Part shown: positions 6,520-14,407 of the stretch, piece after piece
How the letters are laid out: every line of letters begins with the position of its first letter
Position numbering within the stretch: position 1 is the stretch's first letter
Source: a virus
DNA: 64,000 bases
Strand: one strand, 5' to 3'
Virus record (IMG/VR): IMGVR_UViG_3300029448_008324
Coordinates: 1 to 64,000 of that record
Program-made: the position numbers and the translations under genes
The notes under the pieces: model-generated
What the model was told of the DNA's origin: nothing
Databases searched by the model: none
Seen by the model: the letters and a program-made list of their open reading frames with translations, nothing else

Positions 6520-7565
6520 TATTGTGTCAGTTCTTGTTTGTATACAGCATTAAAGCCAAGTTGATTTTTGCCAAAATCTACCAAAGTTTGCAATGCGCCA
6601 GGAGTAATGAATGACTTGAGTGTTTGCACAGCTGCATCTCCTTCATCACCTGTTCTCCATTCATACTTGCCTACTTTCTTTTCAATAGCGGCAATAGATT
6701 CTGGATCTTGGATCATTTTGTTTAGTGCATCAACAAGTTTGTCCTTGTTTGGATTTCCTGCATTTACCCAAAATGCTTTTTGCAGTGCATCTCTCCAACT
6801 TTTTACAAGTTTGTATGCATCATAAAAATCGCCGCTGGGTGCAACACCATGCATTGATTCATACAGTGCTTCAAATGTTGGCTCTGTAAAATTAGGATCA
6901 ACATCATGTGCACCTGTGTCCACATTCAATAGTCCATGATGAAACCATGTGTATGCATCGCCTTTTTCAATCATAGGCACAACATGTTTTTTGTAGGCTG
7001 CTGGATTTTCTCTGGTTGCATTAAGATCTCCTCTAATAAATGCCAGTCTTCTTTCAGATCCTTTCATGCCTTTGACCCAAACAATTTTTTCTTCAAATGT
7101 TTCAATTGGATCACCATCTGGGCCTGCAAGTAACATCACAATGGCCATCACTTCTGGAGTCATTCCAGAACCTGATGAAAATTGTATTGGCCCGTTTTCA
7201 GTGTCCGCTTTGTTTCTTGCACCCACAATGATGTTGAGATTCATGTGTCCAATAGATTCCCAATCAAAATAATTGTAGTCCACTGGTTCAGTGAGATACG
7301 ATATTCCATTGCCACCATGCGATACCAGTATAGTTTTGTCATTAAATCTTAATTCATTTTGGAATTCATTTGGACCTAGTTGATCTCTAGCACCCGGCTT
7401 GTATGTCAAATTAATTTTTTCGCCAAGATGTTTTTCCCATTCTTGCACAACTATTTGTGCCCATACAGATGTTCCGCCTGATGGTTTTTGTGGCACGATC
7501 AAATTGTAATCTGCCAAAGCAGTTGTTGTCATCAACAACAATGCCATTATTGTTTTCTTAAGCAT
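6519..7565 (-). CDS. tctC: Tripartite tricarboxylate transporter substrate-binding protein (TctC/Bug-like)
   Basis: Signal peptide; IVPQKPSGGT and KPGA motifs; adjacent to tctA. Confidence 0.75.
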   Translation of the reverse strand: MLKKTIMALLLMTTTALADYNLIVPQKPSGGTSVWAQIVVQEWEKHLGEKINLTYKPGARDQLGPNEFQNELRFNDKTILVSHGGNGISYLTEPVDYNYFDWESIGHMNLNIIVGARNKADTENGPIQFSSGSGMTPEVMAIVMLLAGPDGDPIETFEEKIVWVKGMKGSERRLAFIRGDLNATRENPAAYKKHVVPMIEKGDAYTWFHHGLLNVDTGAHDVDPNFTEPTFEALYESMHGVAPSGDFYDAYKLVKSWRDALQKAFWVNAGNPNKDKLVDALNKMIQDPESIAAIEKKVGKYEWRTGDEGDAAVQTLKSFITPGALQTLVDFGKNQLGFNAVYKQELTQ

Positions 7566-8994
7566 AGTTAAGTCTACTCCTTTTTTTAATTCCCCAATAC
7601 AGCAAAAACATCACACACATCATTATGACCAAAAAGATTGGTCTCGTGATGAGATCATTTACTGTGTGGAGAGTTGTTAATTGATAAGTGAGGCTATAAA
7701 TCCTATCACTCAACAAAAATCCTATCAGTAGTGCTGGCCTACTGACTTGATATTTTTTGCATGCCAATCCTAAAACTGAAAATGCAAACAAAACTGCAAG
7801 ATCTTCCCATCCCCCTGTGTATTGCAAGGTTGCCCACACAATCACAGCAAGCACAAAAGGAAAGTAATACACATAAGGAATGCGTGATACCCATCCTGCA
7901 AAATATGCCAGTCCATAACAAATGACAGCAGTGATCACAGTTCCTACAAGAAATGCAAATGACATGCTGTCAAATAATTTGTCATCATAAAATGTATCAG
8001 GCGATCCAAGATCAATGCCAAGATACAAAAACAATCCCATCAATATTGCGGCAAATGGAGCGCCTGGTATGCCAAACAACACAGTGGGAATAAACGAAGA
8101 TGCCTTCTGTGCATTGTTGGCGCCTTCTGCACCCACCACTCCACGCACATTACCTTCGCCAAACTTTTCTTTGGGATTAGCTGCTACTGTGGCTCCATAA
8201 GCCAACCAATCTGCCATGGCTCCTCCTAGTCCTGGCAATAATCCAATCACTGAACCAATGGCTCCGCCTCTAAGGCTGTCTTTCCAAAATTTTATAGTGT
8301 CTTTAATGCCTAGGATTAAGTCTTGCCAACTGCCATGATTAGTTTTGATGTTAGTGGTTTTATTCCTCTTGATCCAACCACTCCACAGTTCAGGTATAGC
8401 AAATAAACCTGCAACAAAAGGAAGGATCTGCACGCCATCTTCTAGATATCTCCAACCCATGGTAAATCTGGCCATAGCATTTGCATCTACCCCAACCAAT
8501 CCAACAACAACTCCTGTCACAATTGCAATTACACTTCGCACCCATTTATTAGTGGAAACAAATCCCACAGTAACAAATGCCAACAACACTAGTGCCCATA
8601 ATTCTGGAATACCCATATACATCACCACTTTAGTATACCATGGCAACAATAGGAATGTAAGTGATCCCCAAAACAATCCATTGCAGGTTGAGGATGTAAT
8701 TGCAGCTGATAGTGCCCGTGTGGCTTGTCCATTTTTGGCCATTGGAAATCCATCCACCATGGTTGCGGCCGCAGAGTTGGCTCCTGGTATGCCCAACAGC
8801 ACACCACTAAATGAATCACCGGTTGTAGATGAAGCCACCACTGCCACACAAAAAATCACACCAAGATAGGGGTCTCCTACAAAATAAGGCATGAATCCAA
8901 ACAGTGCGATAAGTCCAGTTGTTGCTCCTGCGGCGGGTATCAGGCCGATGATTAAGCCATACACAATACCTGCCAACAATATTGCAAGTTCCAT
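7558..8994 (-). CDS. tctA: Tripartite tricarboxylate transporter large permease TctA
   Basis: LLGIPG..SAAATMVDGFPMAK.G, GLLPGLGG and EGANNA...FIPTVLFGIPG motifs; highly hydrophobic. Confidence 0.9.
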   Translation of the reverse strand: MELAILLAGIVYGLIIGLIPAAGATTGLIALFGFMPYFVGDPYLGVIFCVAVVASSTTGDSFSGVLLGIPGANSAAATMVDGFPMAKNGQATRALSAAITSSTCNGLFWGSLTFLLLPWYTKVVMYMGIPELWALVLLAFVTVGFVSTNKWVRSVIAIVTGVVVGLVGVDANAMARFTMGWRYLEDGVQILPFVAGLFAIPELWSGWIKRNKTTNIKTNHGSWQDLILGIKDTIKFWKDSLRGGAIGSVIGLLPGLGGAMADWLAYGATVAANPKEKFGEGNVRGVVGAEGANNAQKASSFIPTVLFGIPGAPFAAILMGLFLYLGIDLGSPDTFYDDKLFDSMSFAFLVGTVITAVICYGLAYFAGWVSRIPYVYYFPFVLAVIVWATLQYTGGWEDLAVLFAFSVLGLACKKYQVSRPALLIGFLLSDRIYSLTYQLTTLHTVNDLITRPIFLVIMMCVMFLLYWGIKKRSRLNYA

Positions 8995-9067: not shown

Positions 9068-9475
9068 TTAGCGTTTTTTAAACATATTGCCATGCACTCT
9101 GACACGAATGTGTCCGTTGTAGTAGGCATCGGATTCCAGCACTTTTCTAGCAAACTGTTCTCTGGCTTCTACGTAGGACAGTTCTGCTTTGTTTTTGCAG
9201 TAAAACAGTATTTCACGAGTAAATTTGTCACGACCCAACTGTTCAACATCTTCTGTGAGTGCATCTGACGATCCATAGTATTCGCGCCAGTCTGATTCCA
9301 CTTTGTATCTGCGTCTGTTTTTTCTGCCCTTGAGTGGAGGGCGGGACTTTTTGAACTCCACAAGTTTTTTGCCAATGTATTTCCTACCTGTTTGGTTGTT
9401 GGTGATTTCATACACAAATCCCACACATCCTTCAGGTATTTCATCAACAGTTTTGCCTTGGTATTGCCATGTCAT
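9068..9475 (-). CDS. GIY-YIG endonuclease
   Basis: GFVYEITN..TGRKYIGKK, YYGSS, FTREIL and YYNG motifs. Confidence 0.88.
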   Translation of the reverse strand: MTWQYQGKTVDEIPEGCVGFVYEITNNQTGRKYIGKKLVEFKKSRPPLKGRKNRRRYKVESDWREYYGSSDALTEDVEQLGRDKFTREILFYCKNKAELSYVEAREQFARKVLESDAYYNGHIRVRVHGNMFKKR

Positions 9476-9999
9476 TGTTAAGTATATACGCCATGCACCA
9501 AGCCTCTCCCAACATAGTTGATTCCATTGTCAATTGGATGGAAACATTTGTGGAAGTGCCACATCCATCATTTGGCAACATGCCTCCCTGTCCATATGCT
9601 CGTCAGTTTAGACTGCAGAACAAAGTAAAAATTGTTGAATGTCATCAAGCAATATGGGATGAATGCAAATCACAAATGCGTGAATGGACAGACGAGTGGG
9701 AAGCAGTTATACTTGCGTCAACATTCAGAGAAATTTCCACAGGACTTTTGTCAGAACGCATTCAAAAGATAAACAAACATTTCAAACACTATGATCTCGT
9801 GGCTTTGGAAGATCATCCTGATAGTGCTGAATTCATTGATGGTGTCAAAATGAATCACGGTGAACTTGTGCTTGTGGTTGTGCAAAGACTTGCAAGACTA
9901 AACCAATTCAGCAAAAATCTACAAGCAACCAAATACTATCATCGCTGGAGTGAAGAAAATCTTGATGATGTGGTGAGTTGGCGTTTCAGCGATTCTTAG
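9469..9999 (+). CDS. Hypothetical protein with PCPYA motif (DUF1415-like); true start possibly 9493
   Basis: W...FVE.P.....PPCPYA, EDHP and VQRL motifs. Confidence 0.5.
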   Translation: MSLLSIYAMHQASPNIVDSIVNWMETFVEVPHPSFGNMPPCPYARQFRLQNKVKIVECHQAIWDECKSQMREWTDEWEAVILASTFREISTGLLSERIQKINKHFKHYDLVALEDHPDSAEFIDGVKMNHGELVLVVVQRLARLNQFSKNLQATKYYHRWSEENLDDVVSWRFSDS

Positions 10000-10717
10000 G
10001 CTTGCTCAATCCACAGATGGATTGATAAACACTTTCTAAATCTTCTACATCCTCAACAAAACAGTCTGCACGGATGTGTTGCTCATACAGTGCAAGATCT
10101 TGGCTCCATTCACGGCCAGTCCACCATTCAAAAGCAGGAATTTTAGATTTGTATCGGCAAGACTCATCATAGGACGCCCCCAGATAAAACCAATTGTATC
10201 CTTTGGCATGTGCTGAGCGAATTTCATGGTCCATAGAAAATTTTCCCATGTGCAGTTGAGGATCTCGGTAGTCCCATGCATACTGCCAATTGTCAATGGA
10301 ATGTCCGTATTTGGTCCACACAGACCATGCTACCAATTTGTTATCATAATAGTAACAGTGGAATGTTTCCTTGTCTGATATGCCAAACTTGTTAAACATA
10401 AATGAATCATGGAATCCATTGTGCTGGATGAATTGATCATACACATCTTCTAGTAGGGTTTGATGTTTGATGGCAAACGATCCGGACCATTTTTCCACAG
10501 TCACTCCTTTGCGTTGTTTGAACTTAGGCGCTGTGTCGATGTATTTTTTGATGTTGATGCGAGATGACCTTACTTGTGACCAACGATCACCTATGTCAAT
10601 GTATCCTTGAGCCAGTGCTTGTTCTTGTTCTTCTGGTTCAACATCTGCAAACACCTTAACCCACTGCATGTCATACTTGTCTAATCTACCATATGGATGT
10701 TCAAACCAAATTTTCAT
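9986..10717 (-). CDS. Aminoacyl(Arg/Leu)-tRNA-protein transferase-like GNAT protein (ATE/Bpt-like)
   Basis: C-terminal WDY..P.L.MGKFS..HEI..A...G..WFYLG.SY...CRYK resembles the ATE_C domain. Own TTGACT-N17-TATAAT promoter at 10752-10724. Confidence 0.65.
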   Translation of the reverse strand: MKIWFEHPYGRLDKYDMQWVKVFADVEPEEQEQALAQGYIDIGDRWSQVRSSRINIKKYIDTAPKFKQRKGVTVEKWSGSFAIKHQTLLEDVYDQFIQHNGFHDSFMFNKFGISDKETFHCYYYDNKLVAWSVWTKYGHSIDNWQYAWDYRDPQLHMGKFSMDHEIRSAHAKGYNWFYLGASYDESCRYKSKIPAFEWWTGREWSQDLALYEQHIRADCFVEDVEDLESVYQSICGLSKPKNR

Positions 10718-11817: not shown

Positions 11818-12180
11818 GTGTATATATTTATAGACATGGACATTTACCATATTTTTGCTGATCACCATGACGGCACTGATGCATACACTTTTGTAAAAAA
11901 GATGAGTGTGTTTCTTGATGAGATGGTTGCACTTGGCAAAATGGAATCACATCGTATCATGAGAATGAAGTTGGGATTCCGATCAATGGATTTGCCAGAG
12001 TTTCACATCATGATGGAATTCAAAAACATGCAACAGTTGGATGATGCTATGACAGCTGTGATACGAAATGAAAAAAATATCGACGAATCCCATGTTACTT
12101 TTAATTCACTGGTCAACGTGGATACCATTCAACATTTCTTATACAGAGACTTTCCAGACCAGATCGACGACAGCAAATAA
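11818..12180 (+). CDS. Hypothetical protein (DUF6614-like ferredoxin-fold)
   Basis: RIMRMKLGFRSMDLPEFHIMMEF..MQQLD and LYRDFPD motifs. Confidence 0.5.
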   Translation: MYIFIDMDIYHIFADHHDGTDAYTFVKKMSVFLDEMVALGKMESHRIMRMKLGFRSMDLPEFHIMMEFKNMQQLDDAMTAVIRNEKNIDESHVTFNSLVNVDTIQHFLYRDFPDQIDDSK

Positions 12181-12854: not shown

Positions 12855-13289
12855 TTATGAGGTGGCGGCTCGTGCTCTAACACGTGGTTTGGCAGAATAT
12901 GGTTTTTTGCCTACACTTTTGGATCGTTTCTTTTGAGCATCAAAGATCTTTGCAAACACAGCTTTAATGTAACCAGCATCAGGTCTGCCACCCTTCACTG
13001 TTTTTGACACGTCTAACACACGATCAACGTATTTCTCCATGCTAGGATCTTCTTTGAATATGCCCTGTAACCAAGATTGCAGTGCTAAACCATATTTTTT
13101 TTTAGCGCCAGGATCTTTCTGCACAATCTTTGGCCATTCCTTATCCCATTGATCGACCATGGCATTAACAGCTGCCATTTTCTTGGTGGGAGGCACATCG
13201 AATATGTTCAACATAGCACTTGTGGCACCTGTCACAGCTGATGCAACAGCGGAACCTAAATCTTCATGAATGATATCTCTAATTCTCAT
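12855..13289 (-). CDS. Hypothetical late protein, possibly head-internal
   Basis: Perfect TATAAATA (13305-13298) 8 nt upstream; MRIRDIIHE N-terminus; basic C-tail. Confidence 0.6.
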   Translation of the reverse strand: MRIRDIIHEDLGSAVASAVTGATSAMLNIFDVPPTKKMAAVNAMVDQWDKEWPKIVQKDPGAKKKYGLALQSWLQGIFKEDPSMEKYVDRVLDVSKTVKGGRPDAGYIKAVFAKIFDAQKKRSKSVGKKPYSAKPRVRARAATS

Positions 13290-13300
13290 TGTGCTGATAT

Positions 13301-13537
13301 TTATAGCAATGGCATTTTGGTCTTCTTGACTGTTTCAATGTTTTGTTTGATCAAAGTGTGCAACATGCGTCGATCATCATTGCACAAATTATAGGCTTCT
13401 GTCAAACTAACACTGCCTCTCATATACCAACAGATGCTATGCAGATCATCTTTGATCTGCTTGTTTTCATTATCTAGTTCTTTGAAGTATGCTACGAGGT
13501 CAGGTTCCGAGAGCGAGAGGATTTTGGCACGAAAAAA
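13301..13537 (-). CDS. gp51-like baseplate-hub/tail-assembly domain, predicted C-terminal extension of the gp26-like protein via -1 frameshift
   Basis: 78 sense codons (FFRAKILSLSEPDLVAYFKELD...ICWYMRGSVSLTEAYNL...KMPLL) bounded by TAA 13540-13538 and TAA 13303-13301. No ATG/GTG/TTG until codon 39. Confidence 0.7.
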   Translation of the reverse strand, partial: FFRAKILSLSEPDLVAYFKELDNENKQIKDDLHSICWYMRGSVSLTEAYNLCNDDRRMLHTLIKQNIETVKKTKMPLL

Positions 13538-14376
13538 TTAGAGTTGTCCATGGAAATTTGTGTTTGATACGATTTTGGTGCACCTTTTTCTATCAACTCT
13601 GCAGGTGTTACAATGTCCACAGGAGGAATAGTGCCTTTGTTTTTTTCACGATCAATGTGATCGCGAATCTCATTAGCATATTTGGTTTCAATGTTATGAA
13701 CCCATTCTTTAATAAACACAGGATCAATCACTGCTTCATCTTGGTCTGGCATCTTGATGCTGACAATCATGTCTGTAATGGCTTTCACAGAAAGTTCGCC
13801 TATTTTAGCAAAAATCTTGTTAAACTCTTCCAGCTTCTGCTGTTCGGTCATTGTCGAATCCTGCACAGTTCTAATAAGCCTTTGTTCTTCATAGCTTTTT
13901 AGATTCTGTTGACTGATGCCACGATAGTTCATAGGTTTCAAATTGACCACCAATCCATTGCTTAACTGCATGACATCACCCCAAGGTTCATATGAAATTC
14001 TTTCCAACATGGTACTGAGATGCACCTGGACCGTGTTACTTTCTTGTGTGTTGGGCACCGCTGTGGTGACATCCATCATCTCACCATAGGTAGCAATTCT
14101 AATTCCTACTAACAGTGTGTCAGTGTCCATGGAAGGCACATGCCAAGGATCTTTGATAGCGGGTATGCATGACTTGAACACATCCACAGTGGCCTGTCCG
14201 TTCATGAGAGCATCTGGCGTGCGAATGGTCATTTCGTCTTTTGCAGTCATGGGCATGATGCCCACTTCGCCTTGATCATTAAGTTCAATGCAACCTGGTG
14301 GATACCAACGTCCCTGTGATGGCAAACGAACATATACTGCTGGTTGCCTAAAGTATGTAGATAGTGGGTTTGTCAT
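13492..14376 (-). CDS. Baseplate hub assembly protein / tail chaperone (T4 gp26-like)
   Basis: LPSQG, PMTAKDE, D.DTLLVGIRIATYGE motifs and ..NFF near the C-terminus. Confidence 0.75.
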   Translation of the reverse strand: MTNPLSTYFRQPAVYVRLPSQGRWYPPGCIELNDQGEVGIMPMTAKDEMTIRTPDALMNGQATVDVFKSCIPAIKDPWHVPSMDTDTLLVGIRIATYGEMMDVTTAVPNTQESNTVQVHLSTMLERISYEPWGDVMQLSNGLVVNLKPMNYRGISQQNLKSYEEQRLIRTVQDSTMTEQQKLEEFNKIFAKIGELSVKAITDMIVSIKMPDQDEAVIDPVFIKEWVHNIETKYANEIRDHIDREKNKGTIPPVDIVTPAELIEKGAPKSYQTQISMDNSNFFVPKSSRSRNLTS

Positions 14377-14380
14377 TCAA

Positions 14381-14407
14381 TAAATATTTAACGTAACAGT
14401 ATTTATA
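14381..14407. promoter_or_regulatory. Bidirectional late promoter region (gp26-like / tape measure)
   Basis: Palindromic TAAATATTTA at 14381-14390, plus minus-strand TATAAATA at 14407-14400. Confidence 0.6.

Follow-up and report, generated by a model that had tools for sequence, protein, structure and literature searches.

A predicted programmed −1 frameshift would yield two forms of a gp26/gp51-family hub assembly protein in giant T4-related phages

We have analysed a stretch of viral DNA of 64,000 nucleotides (nt), positions 1 to 64,000 of the IMG/VR record IMGVR_UViG_3300029448_008324 (hereafter the window), and focus here on a minus-strand gene of the family that contains the T4 baseplate-hub assembly proteins gp26 and gp51. 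From sequence comparison, and with a probability of about 0.88, we conclude that this hub assembly gene of a Rak2-related giant myophage makes two products, a short form of 294 amino acids (aa) and a long form of 358 aa, the latter through a −1 ribosomal slip at the heptamer TTTTTTC near the end of the gene. An earlier reading of the letters (the sequence-only reading) had proposed such a programmed −1 frameshift, with products of 294 aa and ~358 aa. It is now strongly supported by the conservation of the site, by a switch of the coding frame, by the lack of a conserved start in the downstream frame, and by the way in which one-gene and two-gene states are distributed among the relatives.

Results

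A slippery heptamer would join two reading frames

The three elements that make up the predicted frameshift are the following.

13492..14376, minus strand: zero-frame open reading frame (ORF), 294 aa, short form of the gp26/gp51-family baseplate-hub assembly protein, assigned by PF12322 and phrog_150 matches
13531..13537, minus strand: slippery heptamer T TTT TTC in X_XXY_YYZ register, zero-frame codons AAT TTT TTC
13301..13537, minus strand: −1 frame extension, an open frame of 78 codons plus TAA, predicted to encode a helical C-terminal domain exclusive to the 358-aa long form

Near its end the zero frame reads AAT TTT TTC GTG, and it stops at a TAG (13494-13492) 12 codons past the heptamer. 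The −1 frame is closed by a TAA (13540-13538) immediately 5' of the heptamer, and from the heptamer on 78 codons stay open until a TAA at 13303-13301, with the first ATG, GTG or TTG only at codon 39 (ATG 13423). Inspection of the ORFs thus bears out the sequence-only reading in the position and register of the heptamer, in the TAA immediately before it, in the open −1 frame without an early start, and in the nearby zero-frame stop. A slip at this site would join the two frames through the junction ...SNFFRAK.

The 294-aa product matches Pfam family PF12322 (T4_baseplate) with an E-value of 8.7e-9 and 35.8 bits, the curated cut-off of the family being 24.5 bits, and it matches phrog_150 ('baseplate hub') with an E-value of 3.9e-15. 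A six-frame search of the 108-kb record to which the window belongs returned this gene as the one PF12322 match. Isolate phages that match the 294-aa protein are Rak2-like and related giant phages only, at 25–31% identity, while a blastn search of the locus against isolate phages gave no match.

The slip site is conserved among relatives

At the protein level, the best 120 of 440 homologues are all 281–300 aa long and end in ...NFF plus 1–12 residues, and none is close to 358 aa. We fetched the DNA of 80 viral-contig and 80 metagenome loci, which cover 39–92% protein identity to the window protein. Wherever the end of the gene could be located, the exact TTTTTTC is found in the same register, that is, in 76 of 76 viral-contig and 77 of 77 metagenome loci. 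When these are pooled into 144 distinct environmental loci, the heptamer is present in all 144, while only 6.5% is predicted from the usage of phenylalanine codons (TTT 998, TTC 533) and from the wobble base preceding them in the same genes. Other FF dipeptides in these 144 genes use TTTTTC in only 2 of 29 cases. In addition, the base before TTT TTC remains T even when the codon it closes is GAT, AGT or ACT, and across 71 loci the heptamer and the following G show zero entropy, synonymous positions included.

The extension is also constant in length, with exactly 78 codons in the complete loci (76/76 viral-contig and 71/71 metagenome), L144 excepted. This locus, on metagenome contig Ga0181409_1007552, is the sole one with an early stop in the extension, at codon 42, and may reflect a sequencing error or a decayed copy.

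Cultured phages carry the site as well. We found it, as T TTT TTC or T TTT TTT, in 13 isolates and in one uncultured megaphage of 595 kb; the isolates include RaK2, PBECO4, GAP32, CBB, BF, XbC2, PA5oct, Atu_ph07, Phosso, Vibrio phage 2.275.O and SCTP-2, and the T TTT TTT variants belong to Stenotrophomonas phage RAS14 (AGT TTT TTT ATC) and Ralstonia phage RsoM2USA (GTT TTT TTT TCC, with nine T in a row). Each of these two variant sites precedes a −1 extension of 82–84 codons. The isolate and megaphage records that we examined either leave the extension without annotation or list a small hypothetical ORF that begins at an internal start, and none of the records inspected has a joined coding sequence (CDS) annotated.

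The −1 frame is coding and has no conserved start

The 70 distinct viral-contig extensions align without gaps over 78 columns, in which FFR, W, MRG and N are invariant and KK is conserved. Over 71 loci, the entropy at third codon positions follows the zero frame upstream of the heptamer (1.46 vs 0.76 and 0.61) and the −1 frame downstream of it (1.53 vs 1.04 and 0.62), so that the codon periodicity changes frame exactly at the heptamer. Judged from these alignments, the −1 frame is kept under purifying selection. The first possible start in the −1 ORF is scattered over codons 4–39 among the 71 loci, and none is conserved. An alignment of homologous loci had been suggested by the sequence-only reading as the way to examine the heptamer, the missing start and the coding potential of the −1 frame; it has now returned the heptamer in 144/144 loci, the switch of coding frame and no conserved start.

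The switch in entropy and the scattered starts together rule out a sequencing error and make an independently initiated downstream gene very unlikely. As for the former, one may suppose that an insertion or deletion in the T run, arising in sequencing or assembly, or the decay of a pseudogene, has split a continuous gene of 358 aa. Homopolymers are indeed prone to such errors, and long forms in a single frame do occur in some relatives. Against this, more than 200 independent sequences from metagenomes, viromes and isolates share the break, the −1 frame is under purifying selection, and the long forms in a single frame have no heptamer and always come with a second, short gene. The indel error that the sequence-only reading had named as a way to overturn its proposal is therefore effectively refuted, and we give this explanation almost no weight.

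If there were instead two separate genes, the 78-codon ORF would be translated by coupled termination and reinitiation or from a non-canonical start, and the heptamer would be a by-product of a conserved Phe-Phe pair. Such a coupling finds its best case in Atu_ph07, in Phosso and in 9 of the 71 environmental loci, where an ATG overlaps the zero-frame stop (ATGA; codon 4 of the −1 ORF in those nine loci), and annotators have called small downstream ORFs in several isolates. The window itself, however, has no ATG, GTG or TTG before codon 39, and the starts of its relatives are scattered, as described above. Moreover, the conserved amino acids of the −1 frame start right at the heptamer, FFR being invariant across the environmental sequences aligned, and the wobble positions of the heptamer are invariant against an expectation of 6.5%. 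The comparison of one-gene and two-gene relatives below adds that short paralogues with no need of a slip lose the FF, and that in fusions within one frame both parts form one polypeptide. We thus consider two separate genes very unlikely, and favour a frameshift at the heptamer.

Lineages without the slip site have two genes

A profile search with the extension retrieved 456 proteins, mostly short ORF calls of the −1 frame. About 20 of the matches are different: they are 319–351 aa long and combine the PF12322 N-terminal domain (N-domain) with the C-terminal extension in a single frame, and their junction resembles the predicted slip product, one F being missing. Another 80 loci divide into 74 with the slip site and 6 (5 distinct) with the long form in frame and no heptamer. 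All five distinct loci (L178, L179, L182, L183 and L184, on IMG/VR contigs) have an adjacent short paralogue that consists of the N-domain only and has lost both the FF motif and the heptamer. This loss suggests that FF is invariant elsewhere owing to the slip site and not to protein function. The extension in the long forms is recognised by hmmsearch with E-values of 1e-23 to 1e-29. That is, these two-gene relatives share the N-domain and the extension domain with the window gene and fall inside the slip-site clade, while they differ from it in having the extension in frame, a single F at the junction, no heptamer and a separate short gene.

The copy number of PF12322 agrees with this picture. 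It is one in RaK2, Atu_ph07, PA5oct, CBB and four slip-site IMG/VR genomes of 95–100% completeness, and two in T4 and in the genome with the in-frame long form. A maximum-likelihood tree places the two-gene lineages inside the slip-site clade and gives T4 gp26 and gp51 a clade of their own; since the tree has only a midpoint root and several long branches, the direction of the change between one gene and two remains tentative. Overall, the complementarity of the one-gene and two-gene states is the strongest argument in this comparison, and it suggests a need for both forms, with the slip site providing the two from one gene.

Relation to T4 gp26 and gp51

Both T4 proteins belong to PF12322: gp26 (208 aa) matches with an E-value of 9e-64 and residues 1–201 of gp51 (249 aa) with 4e-52, gp51 carrying ~48 extra C-terminal residues. 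The N-domain of the window gene is of this same family, although BLASTP comparisons with T4 gp26 gave nothing significant for either the window protein or the extension. The C-terminus of gp26, ...EFFELL, ends a few residues past FF, as the short form does. Its gene reads TTC TTT in the DNA and is followed by gene 25 starting at its stop, so it has neither a slip site nor a −1 ORF, and gene 51 does not follow gene 26 but runs divergently from it. T4 thus has two genes and no slippery site where the family of the window has one gene with a slip site. T4 gene 26 also has an annotated internal-start product, 26' (T4 115802-116089, the C-terminal 95 aa), by which T4 makes a second product from the PF12322 family by a different route.

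The sequence-only reading had labelled the two parts gp26-like and gp51-like. We initially rejected the second label, gene 51 being divergent and the extension having matched an irrelevant region of a single gp51 sequence. This rejection was reversed because Pfam shows gp51 to be a PF12322 paralogue and because a family-level hhalign comparison spans the junction. In that comparison, the long-form profile of the isolates is colinear with a 92-member gp51 family through the junction to the C-terminus, with a probability of 92.7% and an E-value of 4e-7; the probability falls to 18.8% when the long-form profile is built with all loci. Homologues of gp51 also carry Pfam PF28602. The extension alone aligns with gp51 positions 222–255 at a score of 22, compared with 12.4 ± 2.1 in 150 column shuffles, none of which reaches it. 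The tail of gp51 with which the extension aligns is ~30 residues shorter than the extension. From these profile comparisons, homology between the extension and the gp51 tail is likely but not secure. Both labels can therefore stand for the N-domain and for the long form as a whole, while the extension by itself is only weakly gp51-like and the two T4 genes do not share the arrangement of the window.

Elements downstream of the slip site

Two features lie 3' of the heptamer in the window.

13478..13530, minus strand: block directly 3' of the slip site with highly conserved nucleotides in the subclade of the window, its first 36 nt read in two frames
13441..13460, minus strand: 8-bp hairpin (fold prediction) within the extension ORF, ~77 nt 3' of the heptamer

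In 71 relatives, the 55 nt after the heptamer have a mean folding z of −2.0 relative to shuffles, and 36/71 lie below −2, whereas control regions of the same genes do so in only 1/71 and 3/71 cases. A spacer of 5 nt between heptamer and fold is the most frequent, occurring in 24 of the 48 contexts that fold stably, and the fold of Atu_ph07 reaches a z of −7.6. A zero-frame stop one codon after the site is also common (104 of 129 distinct contexts). When RNAalifold was applied to the ungapped alignment no consensus structure emerged, and an Rfam search gave no family match; the downstream hairpins are real in each sequence and are not positionally alignable. A stimulator 5–9 nt downstream or an adjacent stop is thus found in many relatives and is lacking in the window, which has the weakest downstream fold of all loci in the 71-relative test.

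The window and its subclade show a different kind of constraint. In the five sequences of the subclade (79–92% protein identity), the two bins of 30 nt after the heptamer have only 1 and 4 variable columns, compared with 8–16 per 30-nt bin upstream. This near-invariance of 60 nt could come from double coding or from an unrecognised element. The perfect hairpin at 13441-13460, flagged as terminator-like on the plus strand, has both 8-nt stem arms unchanged in four close relatives, where the sole change is two bases 5' of the stem; it is too far from the heptamer for a canonical stimulator.

The layout of the site also bears on whether the slip is made by the ribosome. If RNA polymerase added one U within the T run, some messenger RNAs would encode the long form directly, and as the product is the same, sequence alone cannot separate the two routes. 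The site is a homopolymer run, and the nine T of RsoM2USA could permit transcriptional slippage too. But runs known to slip in bacterial transcription are ~8–9 nt long (reviewed in PMC5009743), and the six T of the usual site are shorter. Furthermore, the environmental loci never vary in the C at position 7 or in the G that comes next, and the hairpin 5 nt downstream in many relatives is the classic layout of ribosomal tandem slippage. We consider a transcriptional origin improbable to a high degree, and infer that the slippage is ribosomal; at the level of the family, the comparative data make this frameshift mechanism well supported.

The probable tape measure neighbour and the comparison with lambda and P2

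14418..16526, plus strand: divergently transcribed 702-aa neighbour, probable tail tape measure (T4 gp29 analogue), on weak leads

According to the sequence-only reading, the frameshift gene lies next to the tape measure gene. It does adjoin the 702-aa gene, but this neighbour is on the opposite strand and its identity is only probable. The 702-aa protein is rich in Ala and Gly, its atlas features score 0.94 to tape-measure clusters, and a C-terminal ...VVGERGPELL... motif (GE.GPE type) weakly matches PHROG tape-measure families (E-values 0.014 and 0.36). The gene at the same position is annotated as tape-measure-like in RaK2 and codes for a virion protein in PA5oct and CBB; in the PA5oct record, this neighbour carries a note of electrospray tandem mass spectrometry (ESI-MS/MS) and the hub gene does not. 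BLASTP against T4 gp29, lambda gpH and the RaK2 neighbour was negative, no Pfam or NCBIfam family matched, PF25671 was not found in the 108-kb record, and a homologue search returned 6 matches only. From these leads, the protein is only probably the tail tape measure, of a divergent and unclassified kind, of giant T4-related phages.

With lambda gpG/gpGT and P2 gpE/gpE+E', the window gene has in common a place among the late tail-morphogenesis genes, an X_XXY_YYZ site close to the 3' end, a short product and one extended at its C-terminus, the two having a common N-terminal part, a frame break conserved despite low sequence similarity, and a probable tape measure gene alongside. The slip site of P2, T TTT TTG, is very similar to that of the window. 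On the other hand, lambda gpG, at 140 aa, is about half the length of the 294-aa short form, and the window gene is divergent from the putative tape measure gene, not co-oriented with it and immediately upstream. Searches for families of the G/GT type found no sequence match in Pfam, PHROG, NCBIfam or the Protein Data Bank (PDB), and Foldseek and VIA-align gave only generic helical matches. The equivalence to G/GT suggested by the sequence-only reading would therefore hold as functional logic, in the sharing of a short and a long form made by a −1 shift; family membership finds no support, as these searches showed no similarity in sequence or fold.

Predicted structures

We modelled the N-domain and the extension as separate chains with AlphaFold2 (AF2). 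The extension is predicted as an all-helical, four-helix element with one long helix, at a predicted local distance difference test (pLDDT) score of 92, and the 294-aa short form, or N-domain, reaches 86. PDB sequence searches with both domains gave no match, and Foldseek (pdb and viral libraries) and a wide VIA-align search returned generic helical matches only, neither domain receiving an informative fold. The matches of the extension in BFVD are confined to small phage ORFs that are uncharacterised, and the hit at rank 11, at a probability of 0.35, is named 'tape measure chaperone'.

Genome setting

14400..14407, minus strand: T4-type late-promoter-like motif TATAAATA, a motif match 23 nt upstream of the start codon of the 294-aa gene

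Genes for portal, prohead protease, major head protein, sheath, tube, fibres and terminase are present in the window, which is the structural module of a myophage of the T4 type. CheckV rates the 108-kb IMG/VR record as 29% complete, which points to a giant phage as its source. The motif TATAAATA occurs 4 times in the window against 2.2 expected, which is not significant by count alone, and 3 of the 4 matches sit just upstream of minus-strand gene starts in this region. The copy ahead of the hub gene is as expected for a T4-type late gene. A second copy at 13298-13305 (minus strand) shares bases with the stop of the extension ORF and lies 8 nt ahead of the ATG with which the next gene begins; this gene (12855-13289, minus strand) codes for a protein of 144 aa that matches no family in Pfam, PHROG or NCBIfam. 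A third copy, at 11825-11832, precedes a 355-aa gene. Some unusual cargo lies near the structural genes, namely a TctA-family transporter (7558-8994), a GIY-YIG segE-like endonuclease (9068-9475) and an ATE_C/GNAT-like protein (9986-10717).

Discussion

Based on the above analyses, we propose the following course of events. The majority of ribosomes would stay in the zero frame and release the 294-aa short form, while a fraction, with two phenylalanine transfer RNAs on TTT TTC, would slip back by one base and re-pair on T TTT TT. The slipped ribosomes would then read 76 further codons in the −1 frame and produce the 358-aa long form, with an extra helical C-terminal domain of 78 residues. Both forms, presumably in a set ratio, would be needed for the assembly of the central hub and the tape-measure part of the contractile tail. 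Lineages without the slip site, and T4 with gp26 and gp51, would supply the two forms from two paralogous genes.

Several points weigh against this proposal. The two products are a prediction from sequence comparison. The 70 nt downstream of the heptamer in the window are less structured than their shuffles (z +1.5), and both the hairpin and the adjacent stop that are common in other relatives are missing from the window and from those nearest to it (z +1.4 to +1.5); because neither is there, the efficiency of frameshifting at the site of the window may be low, although the lambda G/T frameshift also works without a defined structure. The ATGA overlaps of Atu_ph07, Phosso and 9/71 relatives could allow coupled initiation, and the extension taken by itself is only weakly similar to the tail of gp51 (P 0.006; 0/150 shuffles). 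The function, finally, is drawn from the T4 literature, which lists gp26 and gp51 among the hub assembly chaperones, with gp51 absent from the particle, and in which the two proteins are themselves poorly understood (PMC3004832); the chaperone role of the window gene is thus put forward only as a probable one.

Our literature searches returned no published report of this frameshift, and the Rak2-like genome papers that they found do not contain the word 'frameshift'. Frameshifted tail assembly chaperones of the G-T kind are described as conserved and nearly universal among long-tailed phages, with T4 as the named exception ('except T4'; PMC5009743). A tentative extension of our proposal, with the odds slightly against it, is that the gp26/gp51 family is the functional counterpart of the G/GT chaperones in T4-type phages, and that the one-gene state with a frameshift is ancestral, kept by Rak2-like and other giant phages and split by duplication in T4 and a few other lineages. 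The supply from two genes may then explain why T4 was thought to have no frameshifted tail chaperone. If this is true, the textbook exception would be removed, and gp51, the 'hub assembly catalyst', would be the long form of the chaperone.

The frameshift itself, if real, would mean that a different protein family, that of T4 gp26 and gp51, follows the logic of two products from one gene in well over 200 genomes, among them those of RaK2, 121Q/PBECO4, GAP32, CBB, PA5oct, Atu_ph07 and other well-studied isolates. A core structural gene of giant phages would have its annotation corrected, and the relatives with one gene and with two would offer a natural series for studying how recoding sites are gained or resolved. 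In addition, the roles of gp26 and gp51 would become directly testable in phages that can be cultured.

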